A stretch of DNA of 64,000 nt from assembly GCA_944381115.1 (NCBI GenBank), contig CALWJV010000015.1, forward strand, positions 139,894 through 203,893. Direction: 5' to 3'. Source of the DNA: an uncultured Clostridia bacterium (GTDB lineage: Bacteria > Bacillota > Clostridia > Oscillospirales > CAG-272). This document shows positions 3,446 to 44,829 of the stretch, piece after piece. How positions within the stretch are numbered: position 1 is the first letter of the stretch; every line of letters begins with the position of its first letter. The translations under genes and the position numbers were made by a program. The notes beneath the pieces were generated by a model. It saw nothing but the letters and a program-made list of their open reading frames with translations. It was not told where the DNA came from and made no database searches.

Positions 3446-5575
3446 ATGAAAAAGAAAAACAAAAAAATTTTAATGAAAAAAAAATACCGTAAATATAGTA
3501 ATAAAAAAGCGGAAAAACTCAAAGTAAAAAAAAGTTTCGGCTCATTGAAGCATGAAAAAAAGAGTCAAGGTATAAAAAAAGGTGCGGAAATGAAGGGGCG
3601 ATTTTTTGCCACGTTTTCCGGCGGGATATTTTTTGAATTTAAATCAGACGGTAAACTTTATGATGAAAAATATTATATCGACGCAGAAGATACTCTCGGC
3701 GCTATGAACGGAGATACAGTTACGGTTTGCACAGTCGGACGCAGAAACGATGTCGTTGTTACAGATATAGAGGAAAGAGCAGTAAAAAAGGTAATAGGAA
3801 CTATATATTCAGATGAACACAGCGGACAAATGTACCTTGATCCCGAGGACTCAAAGATAAAATTTAATTTTATTGTAAAGGAAGCGGAATGTGAAGAAAA
3901 AGCAAATGACGGCGATAAAGCAGAGATCAGAATAAGCGTCTACCCGACAGATATAACTGAAGAAGGAGAAGGAGTTCTCACAGCGGTTTTCGGAGACAGT
4001 TGTACGAGAGAAGCAAATTACAGTGCGATTCTCAGCTCTTCCGAAATAATAACATCTTTTGGAAAAAACGCAAGCGAAGAAGCTGCATCGCATGAACACG
4101 ATGTACTTAATCCGGAAGGAAGAGAGGATTTACGTTCTGACAACGTATTTACAATAGACGGAGCAGGAGCGAAGGATCTTGATGACGCCATCTCAATAAA
4201 AAAAGAAGGAGATAATTACATTCTCGGAGTTCATATAGCAGATGTTTCGAATTATGTAAAAGAGGGTACCGAACTTGACAATGAGGCAATGCAACGCGGA
4301 ACAAGTGTATATTTTGCGGATAAAGTAGTGCCAATGCTTCCTGTGACACTTTCAAACGGAATATGCTCTCTTAACGCCGGAGTGGATCGTTATACCCTTT
4401 CCGCATTAATTACTCTTGATAAATTTGCTGAGATAAAGGGCGTTACACTTAAAAAGAGCATAATAAACTCAAAAGTAAGGGGAGTATATTCAGAAATAAA
4501 TGAGATTATCGATGGAACAGCAAATGAAGAATTAAAGAAGAAATATTCAAGTATTCTTGACGGTACATTGGATACAATGTTGGAACTTTATGAACAATTA
4601 AAGCTAAAATTCCAAAAAAGAGGAGCGCTTGAACTTGAAACAGAGGAAGCAGAAATAATTCTCGGTCCGGATGGTAATCCTGTAGACATAATAAGAAGGG
4701 ATCGTGGGATCGGTGAAAAATTGATAGAGCAATTCATGCTTTGCGCAAATGAAGCGGTAGCAATTTTTCTTACTGAGAGAAACTTACCGTGTGTATACCG
4801 TGTTCATGAAAAGCCCGAAATGGATAAAGTTTCCGAATTTATTAATTTTGCTTATAACCTCGGAATAAAAACTGATTATATAAATAAGGACAATATATCT
4901 GCAGAATATTTGGGTAAAATATTAAAAAGAGCCGGCGAAAAAGAAGGACTTATGCTCCCTGTTTCTTATATGTTGCTCAGGACGATGAAAAAAGCATTTT
5001 ACAGCAATATAAACATGGGACATTTCGGACTATCAAGCAAATGTTATTGCCATTTTACCTCTCCTATAAGACGTTACCCGGACCTTGCTGTACACCGCAT
5101 AATAAGTGCTGTGATTTCAGGTAACGAAACAGAAAATGTAAAAAAGAAATACTCCGCATTTGCGGATAAAGCAGCAAAAAAATCGTCAGAATGTGAGATA
5201 AAAGCACTTAATGCCGAAAGAGAAATTTCCGCTCTTTACAAAACTATTTATATGAGTGGACATATCGAGGAGGAGTACTGCGGAGTAATAAGTTCGGTAA
5301 CATCATTCGGGATGTTCTGCATACTTGAAAATACCTGTGAAGGACTTATTCCGATTAATTCATTGAAAAATAAGTATTTTTACAATTCCGAATCGATGAC
5401 ACTTACCGCAGCAGGCGGTATTAAATATAAAATAGGAGATAAGGTAAAGATAAAAGTAAAAAATGCCGTGATTTCGCTCAGACAGGTAGATTTTGAACTT
5501 TTGGATGAACCGGACTGTTTTTCAGAAAAAACGCAGCGGTATATTTTAAGACGCAGTGGTAAAAGGATCAGGTAA
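3446..5575 (+). CDS. rnr: ribonuclease R (RNB family 3'-5' exoribonuclease)
   Basis: RNB motifs DGAGAKDLDDAISI and HFGLSSKCYCHFTSPIRRYPDL, plus a C-terminal S1-like segment (YCGVISSVTSFGMFCIL). The first 48 codons are Lys-rich. An alternative start at ATG 3590 has a better SD (AAAGGTG). Confidence 0.9.
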   Translation: MKKKNKKILMKKKYRKYSNKKAEKLKVKKSFGSLKHEKKSQGIKKGAEMKGRFFATFSGGIFFEFKSDGKLYDEKYYIDAEDTLGAMNGDTVTVCTVGRRNDVVVTDIEERAVKKVIGTIYSDEHSGQMYLDPEDSKIKFNFIVKEAECEEKANDGDKAEIRISVYPTDITEEGEGVLTAVFGDSCTREANYSAILSSSEIITSFGKNASEEAASHEHDVLNPEGREDLRSDNVFTIDGAGAKDLDDAISIKKEGDNYILGVHIADVSNYVKEGTELDNEAMQRGTSVYFADKVVPMLPVTLSNGICSLNAGVDRYTLSALITLDKFAEIKGVTLKKSIINSKVRGVYSEINEIIDGTANEELKKKYSSILDGTLDTMLELYEQLKLKFQKRGALELETEEAEIILGPDGNPVDIIRRDRGIGEKLIEQFMLCANEAVAIFLTERNLPCVYRVHEKPEMDKVSEFINFAYNLGIKTDYINKDNISAEYLGKILKRAGEKEGLMLPVSYMLLRTMKKAFYSNINMGHFGLSSKCYCHFTSPIRRYPDLAVHRIISAVISGNETENVKKKYSAFADKAAKKSSECEIKALNAEREISALYKTIYMSGHIEEEYCGVISSVTSFGMFCILENTCEGLIPINSLKNKYFYNSESMTLTAAGGIKYKIGDKVKIKVKNAVISLRQVDFELLDEPDCFSEKTQRYILRRSGKRIR

Positions 5576-5741
5576 TTATATCGTTTCTCCAAGATAATGA
5601 GTCAAACGCATATCCTGAAGCGCCGAGTTTTTTACGGCTTTGTCCGGTCGGAGTAAGAAATTTATAAATACTCATAACACCGAGCATTACAGTGGCACAT
5701 ACCAGAGTCATGCAAATTATTGATAAAAAATCTCTTTTCAT
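5568..5741 (-). CDS. small (57 aa) predicted membrane/secreted peptide, not in the ORF track
   Basis: My own translation gives MKRDFLSIICMTLVCATVMLGVMSIYKFLTPTGQSRKKLGASGYAFDSLSWRNDIIT. An AGGAAAGGA SD lies 5 nt upstream of the ATG at 5741. There is one hydrophobic helix. The ORF overlaps the rnr stop by 8 nt. Confidence 0.35.
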   Translation of the reverse strand: MKRDFLSIICMTLVCATVMLGVMSIYKFLTPTGQSRKKLGASGYAFDSLSWRNDIIT

Positions 5742-5915
5742 ATTATTTCCTTTCCTGATAGATTTTTAAAAAAGATTTTGGCTTTATTAAAGTCTTGATA
5801 TAAGTATTTCCAAACGCGATCGAGTTATAACATAATATAACGATATTTAACAAAATAATTTACAAAAAAAGTATTGAAAAGAAACGGCCGAGTTTGCGGC
5901 GGAAACGAGAAATTT

Positions 5916-6437
5916 ATGGCAATAAAACCCGTAAAAGTAAAAATTGTAACAATGACCAATTACCTAATTAATAAAAATGATAATCTTGATTACACCGATA
6001 ATGTGAATTTTGACGATGAAATTTTTTCATATGAAACTGAAATGACCGATGATGAAAAACCGATTGTATTTGAAACTGAAGGAATAATGGTGTCGCAAAA
6101 AGGATTGATCAAAGTAATATATGACGAATCAGGAATTATCGGAGTAAATAATGCAGAGACGGTTTTCGCATTTAACGAAGATACCCCTACAACAGTTTCT
6201 ATGTTTAAAAACGGAAGTTTAAGCGCGGCACTGGTATTTGACTCAGAAAAAAAACGGCAGGTTTGTCTTTATAATAACGGACCTTTTTTATTTGAGATCA
6301 CAGTGAGGACCGATATTCTCGTAAATGAGATAACATATGATCACGGCGGTAAGATGAGTGCAGAGTATACGATTGAAATAAAAGGGATACCGACTGAGTA
6401 TAACCGAATTTCAGTAAAAATAACCCCAATAGATTAA
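5916..6437 (+). CDS. DUF1934 (YwiB-like beta-barrel) family protein, putative
   Basis: The pattern VKVKIVT...FETEGIM...VIYDES...VSMFKNGSLS...EYTIEIKG...ISVKI resembles YwiB/DUF1934 from memory. The internal ATG at 5916 is preferred over the TTG at 5874. Confidence 0.5.
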   Translation: MAIKPVKVKIVTMTNYLINKNDNLDYTDNVNFDDEIFSYETEMTDDEKPIVFETEGIMVSQKGLIKVIYDESGIIGVNNAETVFAFNEDTPTTVSMFKNGSLSAALVFDSEKKRQVCLYNNGPFLFEITVRTDILVNEITYDHGGKMSAEYTIEIKGIPTEYNRISVKITPID

Positions 6438-6508
6438 ATTGCAAAAATTTGTTAAACAGTGTACGGGGCAAGAAAAAATATATAAAAAGCGGCAGAAAGG
6501 AGGACTCA

Positions 6509-7558
6509 ATGAAACGAATACTAAATACTATGGAATTTAGAGATAAACTTAAAAGCGGATTATCGGGCGGATATATTTTTTTTGGTGAAGAGGAGTATTT
6601 AAAGCATTGTTACATAAAAGAAGTAAGAAAAAGCATTCTTGGGGAAGAGGATAACAGCGTATTTCGTCACAGGCGCGTGAGCGCTCTTGAATTTAACTCA
6701 GGTAAAATAAATGAGATTTTGATAACAAGTTCACTCGGTTTTTTTTCCGAGGGAAAAACGCTGTGTGAAATACATGAACTTGATTTTAAGGAGCGAACCG
6801 AGTCCGAAATTAAAGCGCTTTGCAATACGTTTTCAAACGCTGATCCAAACATAGTTTATATAATTTATACTACTCCGTATGAGTTTGATCCAGGTATTCT
6901 GCCGAAGTCGCCTTCAAAACTTTTACAACGGCTTTCAGAATATCTTACTCCGGTTAATTTTCAGAAAGAAAGCGACATAAAACTTGTAAAATGGGCGGCA
7001 AGACATTTTGCGGCGGAGAAACTTTCATATGAAAACGGAGTTTGTGAACTGCTGGTGGACCGTTCCGGAAGAGATATGTTTGTACTTTTAAATGAGATAG
7101 AAAAACTTTCTGCTTACGTTAAATTTTACGGAGAAGGGATTGTAAAAAAAGAACATGTAGAAACAGTTTCGAGCAGTAATCTTGAAATAAACGCATTTGA
7201 TTTTTCAAATGCAATAATTGGAGCGGACGCAGACAAAGCATGTCTGATCCTTTCGGATATGGAAAGAAGAAAGGAAAAGCCTATTAATATATTCGGAGCG
7301 GTTTCAAAGGTTATATCTGATCTTTATTCGGTCAAGATTCTTGTGGACAGCGGTGCAAATGATAAAGAGATAGCCGGGAAACTTAAAATTCACGAATATA
7401 AGGTGGGCATTTATAGAAAAAGCGCTGTAAAAAGAAGCCGTGAAAGATTAAAAAAACTTTTATCTCTTTGTGCACAGACAGATATTAAAATGAAAAGCAC
7501 ATCGCTCGGTGATTATACGGCTCTTGATAAACTTGTAATAATGGCATCTGTAAAATAA
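6509..7558 (+). CDS. holA: DNA polymerase III delta subunit
   Basis: AAAGGAGG SD before ATG 6509. The N-terminus ...GGYIFFGEEEYLK... is typical of HolA, and the size is about 349 aa. Confidence 0.75.
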   Translation: MKRILNTMEFRDKLKSGLSGGYIFFGEEEYLKHCYIKEVRKSILGEEDNSVFRHRRVSALEFNSGKINEILITSSLGFFSEGKTLCEIHELDFKERTESEIKALCNTFSNADPNIVYIIYTTPYEFDPGILPKSPSKLLQRLSEYLTPVNFQKESDIKLVKWAARHFAAEKLSYENGVCELLVDRSGRDMFVLLNEIEKLSAYVKFYGEGIVKKEHVETVSSSNLEINAFDFSNAIIGADADKACLILSDMERRKEKPINIFGAVSKVISDLYSVKILVDSGANDKEIAGKLKIHEYKVGIYRKSAVKRSRERLKKLLSLCAQTDIKMKSTSLGDYTALDKLVIMASVK

Positions 7559-33307: not shown

Positions 33308-33471
33308 TCTTTTGACGTATTCAGATCAGTATTTTCGGTTGTTTTAAATTTTTATTAAATGGTTATGAGATAGCCGTAATTAAACTTTCAAAAATTTTGT
33401 GTTTTAAAAAAGTAATTAAATTATAACAGTTAAAAAAGTGATTCAATTTGTCTGATAAAGGGCTCAAAGAT

Positions 33472-33729
33472 AAAAAAAGTCCGTCTCGAAAAATAACGGG
33501 ACGGACAAAAATGTTCGTGGTACCACCCGAATTCATCACATTGTGATGCGCTCGATTCTTTAACGCAGAAATACGTATATTCTCCCGAATATAAACTCCT
33601 CGGCGACTTTCCGAAACAAAGTATCTGCGAAAATTCCACCAAACGGACAAATAATCATCCGGTTTTCGCTCTCTGTAAGGCTTATGCTTCGTACTTTTCC
33701 GAATCAAAGTTTTTATAATAAATTGATAA
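33472..33729 (-). promoter_or_regulatory. T-box leader, valine specifier (GUC)
   Basis: Read on the minus strand. AGAGA bulge next to helix GCGAAAA/UUUUCGC. Specifier loop has AAAAGUA on the 5' side and GAAAGUCG on the 3' side, with GUC at 33607-33605. T-box sequence AAUUCGGGUGGUACCACG at 33535-33514. Terminator GUCCGUC...GACGGAC plus a U-run at 33506-33472. Confidence 0.8.
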
Positions 33730-33913: not shown

Positions 33914-33942
33914 TTGACAATATGATGAAAAGATGATATTAT
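33914..33942 (+). promoter_or_regulatory. sigma-A type promoter (TTGACA-17-TATTAT)
   Basis: TTGACA at 33914-33919, 17-nt spacer, TATTAT at 33937-33942. It lies about 50 nt upstream of the HAD ORF. Confidence 0.5.
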
Positions 33943-33992
33943 TGTGACATTAGCAAAGACAAAATGTAAGAATTACAAAAGAGGAAATTTGT

Positions 33993-34799
33993 ATGGTTGA
34001 TTTACAAGAAAAACCTAAATTAAATAAAATAAGAGTTGCTGTGCTTGATTTTGACGGAACCCTCTCGACTCTTCGATGTGGATGGGAAGGAGTCATGAGA
34101 CCTATGATGGTTGAATTTATATCGGGAGGAAATGCTGATGTACAGACCCTAAAGAAAATTGAAGAAGAGGTTTCAGGATATATTGATGAATCTACCGGTA
34201 TACAGACGGCAACACAAATGAAGTGGCTGTATGAGACCGTAATAAAGTACGGATTGAATAAGGACGCGCCGTCCGATATATGGAAATATAAAGCGGAATA
34301 CAACCGAAGACTTATGGAAAATGTAATGTGTCGGAGAAATGATGTTGAAAGAGGTAAAACGGCGCGTGAAAATTACATGGTAGCAGGTGCCGAAGAATTT
34401 TTAAAACTTCTGAAAAAACACGGACTTGAGATTTATGTGGCATCGGGTACCGATACGACAGATGTTAAAGATGAAGCAAAGATACTCGGTCTTGACAATT
34501 ATTTTACAGCGATCGAAGGAGCGGAACCTAAATCGGAAATTTGTTCAAAAGAGGCTGTCATATCATCGCTTCTTGAACGTAACAAAGGCGAGAGCGGGAT
34601 GTTAGTCTGCGGGGACGGAAAAGTGGAGATAAGACTCGGTCGTGGAGCGGGTGCATTGACGCTTGGAGTGGCAAGTAATGAAGAGAGCGGATACGGCATA
34701 AATATGGCTAAGTTTGAGCGTTTAAAAAAAGCCGGAGCACACGCAGTTGTAAGTGATTTCAAGAATATAAAAGAAATAGAACAATGGATTTTCGGCTGA
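33993..34799 (+). CDS. HAD superfamily hydrolase
   Basis: Motif I VLDFDGTLS, motif II ASGT, motif IV VCGDGKVE. Confidence 0.7.
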   Translation: MVDLQEKPKLNKIRVAVLDFDGTLSTLRCGWEGVMRPMMVEFISGGNADVQTLKKIEEEVSGYIDESTGIQTATQMKWLYETVIKYGLNKDAPSDIWKYKAEYNRRLMENVMCRRNDVERGKTARENYMVAGAEEFLKLLKKHGLEIYVASGTDTTDVKDEAKILGLDNYFTAIEGAEPKSEICSKEAVISSLLERNKGESGMLVCGDGKVEIRLGRGAGALTLGVASNEESGYGINMAKFERLKKAGAHAVVSDFKNIKEIEQWIFG

Positions 34800-34947
34800 T
34801 TGAAAAGGTTTATAATGCAGACGGAAAAGTAAGAGCATAATAATGCGTTATCAGGAAAAAGGCATTGTTTTGGATTTTTGGGATAAAATGTTACGTAAAA
34901 ATTTTATCGGGGAAAAATAATAACTTAAAAAATCAGGGAGAATTATT

Positions 34948-35922
34948 ATGGCAGAGATGAGAAGAAGAAGAACACTAGATTTTTCAGGAATAAAAACATA
35001 CAGTGCAAAAGACAGAACCAATCTTGTTCGTATAGATAATTTAAAAATACCTGGTGTGACCGGTCATAAAGTTTTTGAACAAGAGAGTTTTGATGAACTT
35101 GTTGAAAGAATAAAACTTGCAAGAGAGAACGACAGACCTGTAATTTTAAGTTACGGTGCGCATGTTATAAAATGCGGACTTTCAAGATATCTTATTGAAC
35201 TTATCAAAAATAATATAGTTACTCACCTTATGACAAACGGTGCAGGAAGTATACATGATTTTGAACTTGCGTACCTTGGAGGTACCAGCGAGGACGTTCC
35301 GACAGCAATTGAAGATGGGTCTTTCGGTATGTGGGAAGAAACGGGGGCATGGATGAATGAAGCAATAGCGCTCGGAGCATCAAAGGGAATCGGGTACGGT
35401 GAGGCGATCGGTGAATATATAGAAAACAACAAAGAGCGTTTTCCTTATAAAAATGATTGTGTTTGCTATACAGCATATGAAAATGATGTACCGTTTACCT
35501 GTCATATAGCACTCGGAACCGATATTATTCATCAACATCCCTGCTGTGATATGTCCAAGATCGGTTTTTGTTCCGGAGTGGACTTTAAAAAGATCTGCTA
35601 TTCAATTACACAACTTGACGGTGGAGTATTTCTTAATTTTGGCTCTGCAGTGATAGGTGCAGAGGTATTTTTAAAGGCACTTTCAATAGCCCGTAACCTT
35701 GGGAATCCTACATTTAACATAACTACGGCAAATTTTGATCTGAAGCCGCTTGGTGACTTTCGCAGCAAAATCGGATACAGCGATCCGGACTATTACTACC
35801 GACCACGTAAAAATATAGTCAACCGACCGACAAGCAGAGGCGGTAAAGGATGGCATTTTTGCGGCGATCATTCGGATACGCTTACAACCCTTTGTGACAG
35901 ACTTTTAAGAGAAGATAAGTAA
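34948..35922 (+). CDS. deoxyhypusine-synthase-like (DHS-like NAD-binding fold) protein, function unknown
   Basis: The segment PVILSYGAHVIKCGLSRYLIELIKNNIVTHLMTNGAGSIHD parallels, from memory, the DHS core ...IFLGYTSNLISSGIRE.I.YLV.HNMVDVLVTTAGGVEED. Confidence 0.4.
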   Translation: MAEMRRRRTLDFSGIKTYSAKDRTNLVRIDNLKIPGVTGHKVFEQESFDELVERIKLARENDRPVILSYGAHVIKCGLSRYLIELIKNNIVTHLMTNGAGSIHDFELAYLGGTSEDVPTAIEDGSFGMWEETGAWMNEAIALGASKGIGYGEAIGEYIENNKERFPYKNDCVCYTAYENDVPFTCHIALGTDIIHQHPCCDMSKIGFCSGVDFKKICYSITQLDGGVFLNFGSAVIGAEVFLKALSIARNLGNPTFNITTANFDLKPLGDFRSKIGYSDPDYYYRPRKNIVNRPTSRGGKGWHFCGDHSDTLTTLCDRLLREDK

Positions 35923-35973
35923 TTGTCTGCTGTAATAAACAAAGAAATCTGATTTTGAACGGAGATTAACAGA

Positions 35974-36957
35974 ATGATGCTTGATTGTATAGATAACGCA
36001 CGCATTGGTGTAATCGGGGATTTTTGTGCGGATGTTTATTGGGATGTTGACATGAAAAAAAGCGAGCTGTCACTTGAAACTCCCCGGTTTCCGTATCCGG
36101 TTATTGCAGAAAGAATTTACCCGGGTGCCGCTGGAAATGTTGCCGTAAACATAGCGAAACTTAAGCCGTTAAAATTAAAGGTTTGCGGGGTGATCAGTAA
36201 AGACTGGCGAGCCGTAGCACTTAAAAGCGCTCTTGAAAAAGAGGGGATTTATACAGGCGATTTTGTACAAGACGATACGGTTATGACAAATGCATATTGT
36301 AAACCTATGTTACATGGTATTTCCGCTGTTATATATGAAGGATCAAGGATAGATTTTGAAAATTTTAACCATATTTCAAAAAAGACAGAGGAAAAGATAT
36401 TAAATTGGATAGACAGGGTGTCGGAAGAAATTGATGTTCTATGTGTTTGTGACCAATTCAGAGTAGGAATAGTAACGGAAAAAATAAGAGAGAAAATTAA
36501 TCTTTTGACAAAAAAAGGGATAAATGTAATTGTTGACAGCCGTTACAGGGCAGGTCTATACAAAGGAGTTATATTAAAACCGAATGAAAAGGAATGTTAT
36601 CTTGCGGTAAATGAAAAAACTGCCAATGAAAATATATCAAAAGATGAGGCTGTAAAAACTGCAAAAAAACTTTCTGAAATGACAGGTAGCAAAGTACTTC
36701 TTACTCTTGGCAAAGAGGGAAGTGCTTATATAAGCCGCGAAGATATTATATATTGCAGCGCGGTACAGGTTGACGGGGAACTTGATGTATGCGGATGCGG
36801 AGATGCATATCTTGGTGCATTTTCTTCAATGCTTGCCGGCGGCGCTGAAATTTCAGACGCAATGAAAGCAGGTAGTGCAGCAGCGGCATTTGCAATAAAG
36901 TGTATCGGCGTTACTGGAAATGCGTGCAGGGAAGACATAAAGAAAAGATTATCCTGA
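35974..36957 (+). CDS. PfkB family carbohydrate kinase (RfaE/HldE kinase-domain-like)
   Basis: N-terminal IGVIGDFCADVYW...ETP and C-terminal DVCGCGDAYLGAF (the GAGD-type anion hole). Confidence 0.7.
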   Translation: MMLDCIDNARIGVIGDFCADVYWDVDMKKSELSLETPRFPYPVIAERIYPGAAGNVAVNIAKLKPLKLKVCGVISKDWRAVALKSALEKEGIYTGDFVQDDTVMTNAYCKPMLHGISAVIYEGSRIDFENFNHISKKTEEKILNWIDRVSEEIDVLCVCDQFRVGIVTEKIREKINLLTKKGINVIVDSRYRAGLYKGVILKPNEKECYLAVNEKTANENISKDEAVKTAKKLSEMTGSKVLLTLGKEGSAYISREDIIYCSAVQVDGELDVCGCGDAYLGAFSSMLAGGAEISDAMKAGSAAAAFAIKCIGVTGNACREDIKKRLS

Positions 36958-37000
36958 ATATTATGTAACAACATAATTTTAAATTCAAAAAATTACAAAT

Positions 37001-37045
37001 AAAAACCGCATCGGTAAGTATAAAATTACTGATGCGGTTTTTATT
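37001..37045. terminator. bidirectional rho-independent terminator
   Basis: Stem AAAAACCGCATC.GTA/TACTGATGCGGTTTTT. Confidence 0.6.
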
Positions 37046-37251
37046 TGACTTTGACATTAAAAATCGAAATTTGCACTTTTATAACGTCTATAATTGTTAT
37101 TTAAAGTCGATAATTGTCTATATTTGTATTATTTTAATTATTAAAACGTTGTTACATTGTTTTTTTAAGATATAGTTAAACTAATTATTTTAATATGAGT
37201 CAAAAAAATCGGCAAATTAGTATATAGTCAAATTTTGACGATTTCTATTAA

Positions 37252-39870: not shown

Positions 39871-42800
39871 ATGAAAGCAAAAACCAGAATTTTGGCAATA
39901 TTGCTTACCGTGTTGATGGTCGGTGGACTTCTTCCGCTGTCTATTTTTGCAGCTGGTGGCGAAAAGGCAGGAACGTCATCTCCGAACGTTCCGAAAATTG
40001 AGCCTGATGAAATGACATTGGAGGATATTAATAAAGAGTTTGCCGAATCAAATCTTAGCCTTGCTGTTTATCAAGACTTTGATAAATGGCAGATGGATGA
40101 AGGTAGCACAGAATATGTGTTGCCTGCTGAAAGTTTTGTAGCGATAGGTACAAATGCTGATGTAGGAGGCAGTCTAATAAATGTAAAGAATGTCAAGCAA
40201 GTTTTTTCTATTAGAAAAGAAGCAGACGGCAATAAAGCCCTTTATATGGGAACTGCATCAAAAGGTGCAAATAATAACGACAACTTTATTGATATAGGGT
40301 TCGGTCTTCCTCATACATTTTCAAGTCAACAGGGAAACGGAACACATGATTTATACATAAGCGCCGATTTTAAAATGGACGGCAAAAATATAATAGCGCC
40401 AAATGACGGTATTTTCGGACTGCTTTACAGAATAAATAACGGAACACCTTCCATTATTAATACCGTAAGTGTGTCCGAAGTCGGAGGACTTTATATAGGT
40501 GGGTCTCAGAGTCCGGATAATCTTATAGGATTTCTTTCTTCTGAAGAATATACAAGATTGGCTGTTTCAATTGATAGGTTATCAAATAAATATTATGTAT
40601 ATGTAAACGGCGTTCTTGCTAATCCTGAAGGAACCGTACTTTTTTCAAATAAAGTTATCAATGATATGAATAGCAATAATCAAACAGGTAACGGAGTAAC
40701 ATATACTGCGCAGAATTTACCTATTTGTAATATCAGGATGTATACCGTTGAAAACAATATAAATTCTGATGAACATAAGGGATTATACATAGATAACATT
40801 CTTGCAGGTGCACGTCTTGCAGTCAGTGCAAGAGATAACGCATTCCGGGATGTATATACATCCTCTTTCCCGGCTAACCTTGTAGGTACAAATGTAAGCG
40901 TTCCGCTTCCCGGAACAACTTCAAATACAATAGGAGTCATTTGGCCGGGAGCAATAACTTATATTCAGGATGAAGAGGGCGATGTCGCGATGCAGTGGCA
41001 CTATATGCCCAGAGATACTACAACAGATAAAGACCAAGCATATTTCCAGATAGGAAACAATGCCGCACGGGGAGCAAATCTGAGGTTGAGTATGGATTTA
41101 AAACTTGGCGCAGATGGAGTTCTAGGTAGCAGTGATTTTATATTTTACCGTTCAAGTGTAAAAGGAAATACTCAGGAAATTACCGTAAAACTTGAATCAA
41201 ACGGAAATATAGTTTGTGACAATAATGTACTTGGTACAATCACGAAGGAAAAATACAGCAACTTAAGAATTGATATAATATGTAATGCTATCAGCGGGAA
41301 TTCTGTATTTGCACTTATGTTTTTCGATGATATATTGGTATATACAAAATCATTTACTTTAAGTTATGCTGGTACTAACGGTTACGGAAGTACAGATTTC
41401 CATCCGGCTCTCATTCGTATATATTCAATATATGACAACGGAGTTGAACAACTTAAACCAAATGACTTAATATTGAAAAATCTGTCTTTGGTTGAAACAG
41501 AAGATTACAACGATTCCGGATTAATAAGTATATTTGAAAAGAACCCGGAAGGATTTGCCGAAAATGCTGGAATTACCCGTTATTACGGTGAAGAGGGAGT
41601 ATATGTATCTGATTTTGAATATAACGGCGAAAAATACATTGTTGGATACAACGGAATAATAATCGGAAAAGAGTCTGACGGTATAGAGTTTGCACCTTAT
41701 GCACCTTACACCGATTGGGATCACACCGGAACAATGATTTATTCCGGACCAAACGGGGAATTTTTTACAGATTCAATTAATGGAGTCGGGCATACAATTT
41801 TTTCAAACAGAGATGGGTTTAGGAAAAAGGTTACGATGGATAATGGAGATGGAGCAGTACTTTACACATCGTACTATGATGCAGACCCGGGAACAAGTCC
41901 TTTGGACCACGCGTCATACTTGGCCCTTGATTTCCAAAACGGACTTAAAAATACATCTGTGGTAATAGACTTCGATGTAATGATGGGAGAATTTTTTGTA
42001 GAGCGACCCAATTCTAATCAGGCATTTATTTATTTAAAAGGACAGGAAACGGTCAATAACGGTGGCGGCAGAAAGGACTATGATTTCCCGATTTTCCTTA
42101 ACGGAGACGGATGGATTACCTATAACGGAGAAAAGGTATACAAGATAGGAAAAAGAGAGTTTACAAGATTTTCTATAGTAGTACACGGACCTCAGCTCGA
42201 TGGAGATAATCTTACAAAAGCATCCTGTATAGATATTTACGCAAACGGCGTACTTCTTGTTGAAGGACTTACGAATCCAAGTGGCGCAAAGTATCTACAG
42301 CAGATAAGAATGCTTAAGATATACGATGCGGATGCTGCAATGTACTACAAGGATATGTATATGTATTCGGGAGAGAAGCCGCAGCAGTTTATTTCTATGG
42401 TTAACGGTGTTCCGACTCTTACAGAAGATAATTCGCTTACACCTGCAGTTGCAAAAGACATTAAGTCTGGATTTGTATCGGAAAACGGCGTATTAAGATA
42501 TTACAGAGAAAACGGACTTCCGGTAATCGCGACGGAAAATAAAATTTCCTTTACTGACCAGAGCGGAAGAAATTTCAAGGCAGATGTAAACGGTGTCGTT
42601 TATAATGACGTCAATATCGAAGCACTTATAGATCCCGGACATTTCTCACTTGACTTTTCCGTTGATTTTGCCGGAATAGAGAGCGGTGATTACGTATATT
42701 CACCCGATGAGCCCAGAAATGCAAACAGTGTTTTCGGACTCATATTCAATCAACTTTATTTTAATGCAGGCGAATACGACGCAATAAAATTTGATGTGTA

Positions 42801-44829
42801 CATTCCGGAAAATACTATAAATGAAAACAGTGAGGCAACGTATAATTTTGAATTTGGCGAATCTCAGCGTTTTTATAAAGTAAAATGGCTTGGCGGAACA
42901 ACATATGAATTTGGAGACGGAACATATTTTATTGATGATGTAGATGTTCCTGAAGGAGCGATTGAGGTTGAAGCAACAGGAAGCGGATATACCCTTATAA
43001 ATGACCGTGGAGGAAAAAGAAATATCGTCTGCTTTGATACGGATGATGTAGAAGGTGTAAGTTATAATGATACATTTTATGTACGAACAAGAAATTACGT
43101 CAAAGTACTTGAAGGCAGTGCTTTCGGCGAATTGCAAGCCGGATGGAACACAATTGAGATACCGATCATAGAAAATGGAGAATACGATATAGATTACCTT
43201 TCATTTGTAGTAACACCGGCAATAGATGCTTCCGGAATCAAGATCGCTGCAGTAAAAATAGTAAAGAGTACGAGATTCGTAAAGAACGATGAAGCAGGTG
43301 ACGGAATCGGCTCCGACGGATGTTATTATAAATCCGGTATAGCCCAGACAGGTTGGATCGACGTAAACGACAACGGAGAAAATGATGCAGGTGATTACTA
43401 TGCAAGTCCGGATACAACTAAAATAGTAACCGGAATATATTCAATTGATGGAATTTGGTATAAATTCGACAATGACGGCAAACTTATCGGAAAAGCAAAC
43501 GGTATAGAATTTGCAAAGAACGGTGTTGATAAAGACGGAAACGTATATTATGCGTATAAGTCATTTGTTGACGGAGTTATCCAGACAGGACTTATTTCCG
43601 AAGGAGTAACCAACGGCTCAGGCGAAGCGGCAGTTATCTATACAACAGAAAAGGGCGTATCATTGCAAAATGTAGTAGAAAAGATAGGCGATGCAACATA
43701 CGACTTTGATAAAGATGGTTACGGAAAATTGCTTTGTGCAAACGAAGATGCTCACATTTACGGCGAACCTAAGGTTATCAAACTTGCAACATGTCAGGAA
43801 ACCGGATTAAGGGTATACGTATGTAATGTCTGCGGAAACGAAAAAACAGAAGACATACCGATTGATCCCAATAATCATGCCGAGTATGATGAGTCCGGAA
43901 TTGCAACATGCTGTGAGGGAGACGTTAAAGCAGACGGTGTAACATCTGTTTACGGGCACAGTCTTGTAATAGGTGAAAATATATCAATAGTATTTTATCT
44001 TGATATAACAGGAACGGAAGGTCAGATTGAAGTAGGTCGCAGAAGCGAGTTTATAAATGAAACAACGACAAAGGTTAACATTTCTGAACTTGAGGATGTG
44101 ACGATAGACGAAAAAACATATAAAAAGATATCTGTTTCAGTAGCACCTAATGCGGTCAATGCAGTTGTAACTGTACGTTACATAAGACCCGACGGAACGG
44201 AAGGATCATCTTACAACTACCAAACTCAAAAGTACATAGATGAGGTAATAAAAGACGGAGTTACAGGAGAGTTCAGTCAAGAAGTAATTGATCTTGTAAA
44301 AGCATTTGATGCATACGCAAAGAATGTAAATAAGGTTATATATAACGATGGCGAACCTGATGATATATCCGGTGTGGACGAAATAACCTTTGAGAGTAAT
44401 TATTCCGTAAAATACAGTTATAACCAAAAGAACGCAGAGACAAATTACATAAGGCTTGAAAAAACATACGAGAATATATACTTTAATTTTACCGATGCAA
44501 TGGTACTCAAAGTTAACTTTACTCTTACAGGTGTTTCCTCAGACTTTAAGTTTTATGTAAATGGCGAAGAAGTGAAAGGTGTACTGACCGCTGCCGGATA
44601 TCACTGCGTAGAAGTTGTCGTAAAAGCATCGGATATAGATGAACTCATAGAGATCAAGGTAGTCCATGCAGGTGGGTCAGAATTTACACTTTCTACAAGT
44701 GCTCTTGCTTTTGCAAAGCGTAAGTTTATGTCTTCCTCTGCTACAGATGCGGAAAAGAACCTGATGAAAGCAATTTATATGTATAATAAAGCAATTGTCT
44801 CTTTTTTGGCAGAGGATGCAGCAGAGTAA
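39871..44829 (+). CDS. 1,652-aa secreted multi-module surface/adhesin-like protein
   Basis: Signal peptide MKAKTRILAILLTVLMVGGLLPLSIFAAGG. At least three paralogous modules of about 200 aa. Cell-wall-binding-like aromatic/Gly repeats (e.g. GWIDVN...GIWYKFDNDGKLIG). Cys cluster CQETGLRVYVCNVCG...H...CC. No LPXTG motif and no C-terminal TM helix. Confidence 0.8.
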   Translation: MKAKTRILAILLTVLMVGGLLPLSIFAAGGEKAGTSSPNVPKIEPDEMTLEDINKEFAESNLSLAVYQDFDKWQMDEGSTEYVLPAESFVAIGTNADVGGSLINVKNVKQVFSIRKEADGNKALYMGTASKGANNNDNFIDIGFGLPHTFSSQQGNGTHDLYISADFKMDGKNIIAPNDGIFGLLYRINNGTPSIINTVSVSEVGGLYIGGSQSPDNLIGFLSSEEYTRLAVSIDRLSNKYYVYVNGVLANPEGTVLFSNKVINDMNSNNQTGNGVTYTAQNLPICNIRMYTVENNINSDEHKGLYIDNILAGARLAVSARDNAFRDVYTSSFPANLVGTNVSVPLPGTTSNTIGVIWPGAITYIQDEEGDVAMQWHYMPRDTTTDKDQAYFQIGNNAARGANLRLSMDLKLGADGVLGSSDFIFYRSSVKGNTQEITVKLESNGNIVCDNNVLGTITKEKYSNLRIDIICNAISGNSVFALMFFDDILVYTKSFTLSYAGTNGYGSTDFHPALIRIYSIYDNGVEQLKPNDLILKNLSLVETEDYNDSGLISIFEKNPEGFAENAGITRYYGEEGVYVSDFEYNGEKYIVGYNGIIIGKESDGIEFAPYAPYTDWDHTGTMIYSGPNGEFFTDSINGVGHTIFSNRDGFRKKVTMDNGDGAVLYTSYYDADPGTSPLDHASYLALDFQNGLKNTSVVIDFDVMMGEFFVERPNSNQAFIYLKGQETVNNGGGRKDYDFPIFLNGDGWITYNGEKVYKIGKREFTRFSIVVHGPQLDGDNLTKASCIDIYANGVLLVEGLTNPSGAKYLQQIRMLKIYDADAAMYYKDMYMYSGEKPQQFISMVNGVPTLTEDNSLTPAVAKDIKSGFVSENGVLRYYRENGLPVIATENKISFTDQSGRNFKADVNGVVYNDVNIEALIDPGHFSLDFSVDFAGIESGDYVYSPDEPRNANSVFGLIFNQLYFNAGEYDAIKFDVYIPENTINENSEATYNFEFGESQRFYKVKWLGGTTYEFGDGTYFIDDVDVPEGAIEVEATGSGYTLINDRGGKRNIVCFDTDDVEGVSYNDTFYVRTRNYVKVLEGSAFGELQAGWNTIEIPIIENGEYDIDYLSFVVTPAIDASGIKIAAVKIVKSTRFVKNDEAGDGIGSDGCYYKSGIAQTGWIDVNDNGENDAGDYYASPDTTKIVTGIYSIDGIWYKFDNDGKLIGKANGIEFAKNGVDKDGNVYYAYKSFVDGVIQTGLISEGVTNGSGEAAVIYTTEKGVSLQNVVEKIGDATYDFDKDGYGKLLCANEDAHIYGEPKVIKLATCQETGLRVYVCNVCGNEKTEDIPIDPNNHAEYDESGIATCCEGDVKADGVTSVYGHSLVIGENISIVFYLDITGTEGQIEVGRRSEFINETTTKVNISELEDVTIDEKTYKKISVSVAPNAVNAVVTVRYIRPDGTEGSSYNYQTQKYIDEVIKDGVTGEFSQEVIDLVKAFDAYAKNVNKVIYNDGEPDDISGVDEITFESNYSVKYSYNQKNAETNYIRLEKTYENIYFNFTDAMVLKVNFTLTGVSSDFKFYVNGEEVKGVLTAAGYHCVEVVVKASDIDELIEIKVVHAGGSEFTLSTSALAFAKRKFMSSSATDAEKNLMKAIYMYNKAIVSFLAEDAAE

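Follow-up and report, generated by a model that had tools for sequence, protein, structure and literature searches.

A GSU2086-family protein in a Clostridial sugar-phosphate operon as a candidate stand-in for the heptose epimerase HldD

The window analyzed here is a stretch of 64,000 nucleotides from an uncultured Clostridia bacterium, and the subject of this work is an operon on its forward strand that encodes a phosphatase of the HAD family, a protein of the GSU2086 family and a PfkB-type sugar kinase. We consider it about an even call that the operon specifies a heptose-type sugar-phosphate module in which the GSU2086 protein acts as a hydride-transfer heptose epimerase standing in for HldD, and that in the lineage of the window this module serves salvage. 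The hydride-transfer reading is based on four properties of the family: a fold suited to a dinucleotide hydride carrier, relatives that proceed through transient oxidation of their substrate, the company of genes for a hydride-transferring cofactor, and a distribution among genomes complementary to that of HldD. The preliminary description of this DNA had proposed an uncharacterised small-molecule pathway combining a kinase, a phosphatase and an enzyme with the fold of deoxyhypusine synthase (DHS), and our results uphold this proposal in the form of a single sugar-phosphate unit.

The product of the middle gene matched model NF052581 ('GSU2086 family protein') over its full length, with 386 bits for a cut-off of 250 and residues 10-316 aligned to profile positions 2-299 of 301. 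On this match it is assigned to the GSU2086 family, which is catalogued without a described function. Its likeness to DHS, previously noted by eye, was retained for the predicted fold and lost for the identity of the enzyme. The DHS profile PF01916 (DS) was barely passed (27.3 bits for a cut-off of 27), over 65 of its 288 positions only (residues 43-106 on profile positions 11-75), and this is the very segment that had been aligned by eye. The equivalog models of DHS failed (TIGR00321, 22.8 bits against 304; NF003052, 16.3 bits against 380), and the score with TIGR00300 was 10.8 bits for a cut-off of 411. A true DHS or a homospermidine synthase was ruled out, as the curated models all scored far under their cut-offs. 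An AlphaFold model built from 80 homologues (predicted local distance difference test, pLDDT, 96.3) had as its top Foldseek match a DHS (7cmc_A; template modelling score, TM, 0.58; E 1.1e-8; 15% identity); further matches were many human DHS entries at TM 0.51-0.55, the cyclodeaminase domains at the C-terminus of AgrE and of ArgZ, and the LOR/SDH protein 3c2q. When the Protein Data Bank was searched with the single sequence of the middle protein, nothing significant was returned. A search with the family profile retrieved AgrE and ArgZ at E 4e-7 and 3c2q at E 3e-5, and DHS only at 1e-3. The motif G..VI..G...NA.A.HD.E..G.TS is common to the GSU2086 family and to cyclodeaminases of the LOR/SDH type. 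The catalytic lysine of DHS lies in the C-terminal part of the protein (Lys329 in the human enzyme); sequence alignments of the middle protein to DHS stopped short of this part, and the fold search gave no residue-level correspondence. The middle protein is thus predicted by its model to have a dinucleotide-binding fold like that of DHS and ornithine cyclodeaminase, and by profile it appears nearer to the LOR/SDH cyclodeaminase branch than to DHS. Separately, 38 of 401 genomes of the phylum encoded proteins of about 400-430 residues with weak matches to NF052581 (30-41 bits, profile positions 45-113; for instance G221:C36:4905-5126); these proteins, found in many Clostridia, are probably relatives of the LOR/SDH-type cyclodeaminases carrying the HD.E motif.

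Gene order, gene fusions and co-occurrence in genomes all tie the GSU2086 family to heptose genes. For Geobacter sulfurreducens, PMC5585712 places GSU2086 between hldE (GSU2085) and gmhA (GSU2087), includes the three genes in the same phenotype table from transposon sequencing and lists the product of GSU2086 as hypothetical within an operon for sugar biosynthesis. It was the only paper found that names GSU2086, and a literature search, from whose coverage subscription journals largely fell outside, gave no paper linking the family to heptose. Among 24 long representatives of the family, the GSU2086 domain was fused to a HAD domain in 3, to a PfkB domain in 1, to a SIS domain of the GmhA type in 4, to a cytidylyltransferase-like domain in 5 and to a DUF89 phosphatase plus a cytidylyltransferase in 2, the rest being tandem copies, fusions to other partners or unassigned. 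Odd architectures were also seen in the family (P0204, P0128, P0121, P0153), with a RyR domain at the N-terminus, a part of a GH38 mannosidase at the C-terminus or GSU2086 domains duplicated in tandem. With a 12-row alignment as the query, 80 environmental loci were fetched from metagenomes, of which 75 carried a clustered GSU2086 open reading frame (ORF). In these 75 loci the co-directional upstream neighbor was gmhA in 25 cases, the downstream neighbor was a kinase passing the rfaE_dom_I cut-off (380 bits) in 14, heptosyltransferases were present in 10, and the Kdo genes kdsA, kdsB, kdsC and kdsD were present in 6-7. As for HldD itself, the three genes of the short-chain dehydrogenase/reductase (SDR) type that stood beside GSU2086 in the metagenome loci were generic sugar-nucleotide enzymes (94-109 bits, cut-off 275). 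We rejected the idea that GSU2086 takes the place of the nucleotidyltransferase, the phosphatase, the isomerase or the kinase of the pathway, as the family is fused to each of them in different proteins and co-occurs with the kinase and HldC.

The partners of the GSU2086 gene in the window recur with it in other genomes. The HAD protein matched PF00702 (34.5 bits) and PF13419 (32.5 bits), and among the curated models no GmhB model was matched. The kinase matched PF00294 (89.1 bits); its best NCBIfam match was rfaE_dom_I (TIGR02198) with 141 bits, under the cut-off of 345, and the next family followed at 71 bits. The resemblance to HldE/RfaE that had been recorded earlier is borne out in that domain I of HldE/RfaE is the nearest family, and the window kinase is best taken as a diverged relative of this anomeric (C-1) heptose-7-phosphate kinase. 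The three genes correspond to parts of the heptose pathway, a sugar pathway that is already characterised. We collected 80 loci from Clostridia genomes, many of which were truncated at the end of a contig. A kinase of the window type was present in 68 of them, in 60 as the adjacent gene on the same strand, and a HAD gene of the window type in 28, in 21 as the adjacent gene; genes for a GmhA-like protein and a ROK protein were part of the cluster in about a dozen. We then compared 16 GSU2086-positive Clostridia genomes with 20 GSU2086-negative ones that share their genus, family or order. Orthologues of the kinase were found in 15/16 positive vs 0/20 negative genomes and orthologues of the HAD protein in 13/16 vs 0/20; a GmhA-like gene was found in 15/16 of the positive genomes. 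The recurrence of the trio is more than chance. In four genomes (G416, G014, G029 and G023) the same HAD protein is fused behind a GmhA-like SIS domain, and this frequent fusion elsewhere fits a pair of consecutive steps. In about 32 loci from Acutalibacteraceae (L009-L044 and others; for instance L036:6194-6931), the cluster lacks the HAD gene, a gene for a YhhN-family membrane protein lies co-directionally upstream of GSU2086 and a divergent gene of the endonuclease/exonuclease/phosphatase family lies beside it.

The relation to HldD was analyzed in another phylum, which is diderm and to which genome G438, found via locus L046, gave access. A GSU2086 gene over the cut-off was present in 21/201 sampled genomes of this phylum, and these 21 were compared with 59 negative genomes, taken as the first 59 negative handles by number with no selection for any feature. 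The rfaE_dom_I kinase was present in 21/21 positive genomes and in 35/59 negative ones, which splits the latter into 35 kinase-positive and 24 kinase-negative genomes. HldC (rfaE_dom_II) was present in 20/21 positive genomes (all but G438), in 35/35 kinase-positive negatives and in 0/24 kinase-negative ones. HldD over the cut-off was found in 0/21 GSU2086 genomes, in 34/35 kinase-positive negatives (all but G500) and in 0/24 kinase-negative genomes. Of the 55 genomes with both kinase and HldC, 20 had GSU2086 only, 34 had HldD only, one had neither and none had both. In 17-19 of 20 loci of this phylum, GSU2086 lies behind a GT9 heptosyltransferase gene and a DUF3108 gene. A second, separate instance is provided by the Clostridia: among the 36 genomes compared, a true HldC (at least 170 bits) was found only in G071, G080, G122 and G141, all of which have GSU2086 and none of which has HldD, HldD over the cut-off being absent from all 36. 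Three of these four (G071, G122 and G141) are the positive genomes that lack the HAD gene, and in G071 and G141 a GmhB-type gene lies beside gmhA. The pattern is the signature of non-orthologous replacement of HldD by GSU2086, and may rest on one to four evolutionary events. The locus that led to the phylum (G438:C297:4901-6906) carries a Clostridial-type row of HAD, GSU2086, kinase, ROK and GmhA genes whose products are about 70% identical to the window proteins, and this contig may be mis-binned or may result from a recent horizontal transfer.

A second genome-level association was found with the Lar genes. LarB, LarC and LarE make the nickel-pincer cofactor. NCBIfam names the related family TIGR00300 nickel-pincer-dependent cyclodeaminase, and ornithine cyclodeaminases of this type were reported in 2025, according to a 2026 paper that cites the work (PMC13524815), to use nickel-pincer adenine dinucleotide. 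In the phylum of G438, LarC over the cut-off was present in 21/21 GSU2086 genomes vs 0/23 HldD genomes, the latter including 4 of the 6 HldD genomes that the kinase tree groups with the GSU2086 genomes. In the Clostridia, LarC over the cut-off was present in 10/16 GSU2086-positive vs 3/20 GSU2086-negative genomes, and in 10/10 of the positive genomes outside the family group of the window. A LarA homologue was missing from 3/5 checked genomes of the G438 phylum with LarC and GSU2086, so that LarC has another client there; LarA homologues were present in 4/5 checked Clostridia. In G510, LarC is encoded directly downstream of, and co-directionally with, the Kdo transferase gene kdtA/waaA (locus L263, G510:C3:133000-143000, positions 4334-6795 on the reverse strand), and G416 carries a larE-larB-larC operon. 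By genome co-occurrence, GSU2086 in diderms appears to depend on the nickel-pincer cofactor. The counts of HldD complementarity and of LarC co-occurrence are new.

In the proposed mechanism, the GSU2086 protein would carry out a redox-neutral inversion at C-6 of glycero-manno-heptose through transient oxidation to a ketone, which is the job of HldD. Within the window module, its most likely substrate would be a heptose phosphate and not ADP-heptose, and in the window lineage NAD(P)+ would probably occupy the same pocket, the alternative being a scavenged nickel-pincer cofactor. A more specific form of the proposal, to which we give distinctly less credence, makes the GSU2086 family one more structural class among nickel-pincer enzymes: a heptose C-6 epimerase with the DHS/cyclodeaminase fold that would replace HldD for LPS in entire bacterial lineages and would have been recruited in the gut Clostridia of the window to nucleotide-free heptose salvage, after a switch to NAD(P)+ or with a cofactor made by neighbors.

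The window genome (95.3% complete) gave no match to rfaE_dom_II (TIGR02199) at E <= 0.001, a tblastn search with the GmhB of G141 found nothing in it, and it has no GT9 homologue. As nucleotidyltransferase, GmhB and GT9 are all missing, the module is nucleotide-free and probably works in salvage. On contig C9 of the same genome, a GmhA-like SIS protein (137 bits, cut-off 209) is encoded beside a ROK kinase; this pair is unlinked to the operon and adjoins a rhamnosidase-like glycosidase gene. The strict partners of GSU2086 here are a kinase of the anomeric type and a phosphatase dedicated to the module, which fits the following route; we infer its order of steps, its substrate and its direction. 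Firstly, the ROK kinase would convert heptose to heptose 7-phosphate, from which the PfkB kinase would form the 1,7-bisphosphate. Secondly, GSU2086 would convert this bisphosphate to its C-6 epimer. Thirdly, the HAD protein, as the module's own phosphatase, would remove a phosphate to leave the 7-phosphate, and the GmhA-like isomerase would yield sedoheptulose 7-phosphate. The source could be, for example, L-glycero-D-manno-heptose freed from the lipopolysaccharide (LPS) of other bacteria, and the route would be one of salvage or catabolism, not of ADP-heptose synthesis. Salvage is supported by the ROK-GmhA pair beside the rhamnosidase-like gene and by the gene rows of two relatives: that of G416 comprises LacI, a fusion of SIS and HAD, GSU2086, the kinase, genes of an ABC sugar transporter, an oxidoreductase of the Gfo/Idh/MocA type and an isomerase with a TIM barrel, and that of G349 comprises a ROK regulator, GSU2086, the kinase, HAD, a ROK kinase, a GmhA-like gene and ABC genes.

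A number of observations weigh against this reading, and they concern the replacement of HldD, the cofactor, and the substrate and direction of the window route. The GSU2086 family has no member with a known enzyme activity. With regard to HldD, G500 has a kinase (C1:4990216-4991157) and HldC (C1:799183-799605) with neither HldD nor GSU2086, and since this genome has the pathway without either, an epimerase is not obligatory; GSU2086 genomes might simply use D,D-heptose. When a tree was built from the 55 kinases, the GSU2086 genomes were placed in one 26-row group that also holds 6 HldD genomes. Parsimony on this tree gives four changes, of which well-supported branches force only one. A single independent pair has support, and the best tree, itself unsupported, gives 3-4; such numbers do not allow any significance, and the HldD and LarC counts may reflect only one to four events. 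GSU2086 might alternatively perform some other tailoring step on a heptose phosphate (an epimerisation, oxidation, dehydration, anomerisation or mutase reaction) as a fifth enzyme, the HldD pattern being a coincidence of lineage in a clade that has lost HldD and uses D,D-heptose. This explanation, which we regard as unlikely while taking it as the most serious rival, is equally compatible with the linkage to heptose genes, with a pattern resting on a single event and with G500, which manages without either enzyme. It is opposed by the exactness of the pattern, since in 54/55 genomes that have kinase and HldC there is either HldD or GSU2086 and never both, and by the 6 HldD genomes that group with GSU2086 genomes in the kinase tree, all of which lack GSU2086 and four of which, those tested, lack LarC.

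With regard to the cofactor, LarC was not found in 6/6 GSU2086-positive genomes of the family group of the window; these six comprise the window genome, four others from its family and one from a neighboring family. LarB over the cut-off was not found in the five LarC-less genomes searched for it, and the window genome has no LarC, LarB or LarE over the cut-off, LarE having been searched in this genome only. Synthesis of the nickel-pincer cofactor by the window's own organism was discarded on these grounds. The GSU2086 proteins from Lar-less genomes have lost no conserved residue and show no residue signature, and a lineage that lacks Lar genes and keeps its residues intact implies that the nickel-pincer link is not obligatory or not causal. 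A Lar gene adjoins GSU2086 in only 1/195 loci (LarB, in L159).

With regard to the substrate, the window kinase (141 bits against 345) and the GmhA-like protein (137 against 209) both score under the heptose cut-offs, a BLAST search with a true HldE misses the window kinase at E 1e-5, and a GmhA-like gene is also found in 6/20 GSU2086-negative Clostridia; the substrate may not be heptose. A module that acts on a non-heptose sugar phosphate in glycan degradation, and is only descended from heptose enzymes, would account for these scores and for the neighbors in G416, G399 and G023, which include Gfo/Idh/MocA oxidoreductases and xylose-isomerase-like TIM barrels (the row of G399 consists of the kinase, HAD, a GSU2086-SIS fusion and oxidoreductases). 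We hold this to be improbable, as the window GSU2086 protein passes the same model, with 386 bits, as the members of true LPS heptose operons, to which it is 35-48% identical, and rfaE_dom_I is still the best kinase family by a factor of two in bits. With regard to direction, the rows of two relatives have the look of biosynthesis and not of catabolism: that of G029 holds a SIS-HAD fusion, an unknown gene, a GT2 gene directly upstream of GSU2086, and the kinase, and in G141 hldE, gmhA and gmhB face GSU2086 with GT9 and GT2 genes alongside. The module of the window lineage might make heptose 1-phosphate, or a related sugar phosphate, for a surface glycan after activation by an unrecognised nucleotidyltransferase encoded elsewhere. 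The window operon itself, with a constitutive-looking promoter of its own and neither a regulator nor a transporter adjoining, would suit such a role. This biosynthetic role is also improbable, if slightly less so than a non-heptose substrate: the window genome, nearly complete as it is, has no homologue of rfaE_dom_II, GmhB or GT9, generic cytidylyltransferase matches are equally common in Clostridia with and without the module, and several relatives have the module beside repressors, ABC sugar transporters and oxidoreductases.

The preliminary description had also raised a link to the modification of elongation factor P (EF-P), encoded about 2 kb downstream of the operon. The neighbors were as it had described, with an EF-P carrying the HVKPGKG motif and with glyQS on the reverse strand between the operon and efp. 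Modification of EF-P by the middle protein has two points in its favor, the DHS-like fold and the proximity of efp in this single window. No curated model calls this protein a DHS, and the opposite-strand glyQS and a strong terminator separate the operon from efp. The GSU2086 gene is an accessory one: the family was found in 7/41 genomes sampled among the relatives (1/12 other genomes of the same genus) and, over the cut-off, in 10/401 genomes of the phylum with the window genome included. To our knowledge, EF-P is universal. A tblastn search with the window EF-P found no efp homologue in 175 related loci with up to 7 kb of flank each. Given this patchy distribution and the lack of efp in all 175 loci, the link was dropped, since the preliminary description had itself named missing co-occurrence with efp as a refutation. 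We regard EF-P modification as extremely improbable, and the closeness of the operon to efp is particular to this window.

The layout of the operon agreed in every part with what had been described: three co-directional ORFs behind one promoter, each with its Shine-Dalgarno site (AGAGGA, AGGGAG and CGGAGA for the first, second and third ORF), no terminator in the gaps and a bidirectional terminator at the end (Table 1). In the two intergenic gaps (148 nt and 51 nt), a pattern scan gave no terminator-like site and folding was no better than that of shuffled sequences (z -0.98 and -0.07), and an Rfam search of the operon with its leader and gaps gave no RNA element. The terminator hairpin folds with -31.5 kcal/mol (z -11.6) on the forward strand and -26.2 kcal/mol (z -9.2) on the reverse strand, and its stem is flanked by an A-run and a T-run. 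The HAD, GSU2086 and kinase genes form one operon.

Table 1. Coordinates of the operon and its signals in the window
Feature	Coordinates	Strand	Remarks
Promoter, sigma-70-type, TTGACA-17-TATTAT	33914..33942	+	11/12 positions match; TG precedes the -10 box
HAD-family phosphatase, 268 aa	33993..34799	+	PF00702, PF13419; module-specific subfamily, not of the GmhB type
GSU2086-family protein, 324 aa, predicted DHS / LOR-SDH-like fold	34948..35922	+	NF052581, fold, profile relatives
PfkB sugar kinase, 327 aa	35974..36957	+	Nearest to the heptose-7-phosphate kinase domain of HldE/RfaE
Intrinsic terminator, bidirectional	36996..37047	.	Common to the operon and the convergent glyQS

Other features of the surroundings were recorded. 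On the reverse strand, a T-box leader (RF00230, 123 bits, E 4e-28) lies at 33494-33716 upstream of valS, with a promoter at 33765-33737 that matches perfectly at 12/12 positions; an ORF of 114 codons at 33363-33707 on the same strand overlies this leader and is probably no gene. Directly after efp, an ORF of 1652 codons at 39871-44829 on the forward strand begins with a signal-like segment and is predicted to encode a large secreted or surface protein.

The proposed module can be compared with several known systems. It resembles the ADP-heptose pathway in the kinase, which is nearest to domain I of HldE, in the GmhA-like isomerase encoded elsewhere in the window genome, in the phosphatase step and in the presence of the GSU2086 family inside true heptose operons of diderm bacteria. 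It differs from this pathway in its host, here a gut Clostridia genome of the Gram-positive type, and in that this genome lacks the nucleotidyltransferase, the GmhB-type phosphatase, GT9 and HldD, the look-alikes all being under the cut-offs. With HldD/RfaD, the ADP-L-glycero-D-manno-heptose 6-epimerase, GSU2086 would share the job, and the two have complementary distributions among genomes; HldD is of the SDR fold with bound NADP+, whereas GSU2086 has an unrelated fold with no sequence similarity to it, probably a heptose phosphate as its substrate and probably a different cofactor. The LOR/SDH-type cyclodeaminases (TIGR00300, ArgZ, AgrE, 3c2q) are the nearest solved relatives by profile and are alike in fold and in the genome-level association with Lar genes, but the similarity covers only about 100 N-terminal residues and GSU2086 keeps company with heptose genes, not with arginine or ornithine genes. 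With DHS the likeness is in the overall fold (TM 0.51-0.58) and the first dinucleotide-binding motif, while the C-terminal two thirds of the DHS profile are unmatched and a link to EF-P or eIF5A is lacking. For LarA-type nickel-pincer racemases and epimerases, PMC13524815 gives alpha-hydroxy acids as the known substrates. Their fold is unrelated to that of GSU2086; the likeness would be in the abstraction of a hydride from a CH-OH carbon and its return to the other face, and both appear dependent on the Lar cofactor genes.

In the assembly of the LPS core, the synthesis of heptose is a textbook pathway, and it is also a target for drugs. Two of its intermediates, heptose 1,7-bisphosphate and ADP-heptose, act as innate-immune signals (PMC6662969). 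If our reading is true, a sizeable share of diderm bacteria (20/55 pathway-bearing genomes in the sampled phylum) would make heptose with an unrelated and unstudied enzyme, and corrections would be due in pathway annotation, in inhibitor design and in the way LPS structure is predicted. Through its tie to LarC, the family would provide a client enzyme for the many 'orphan' producers of the nickel-pincer cofactor and would extend the chemistry of this cofactor from hydroxy acids to sugars. The nucleotide-free form of the module in Gram-positive gut bacteria suggests that commensals may consume or interconvert heptose phosphates from their Gram-negative neighbors.

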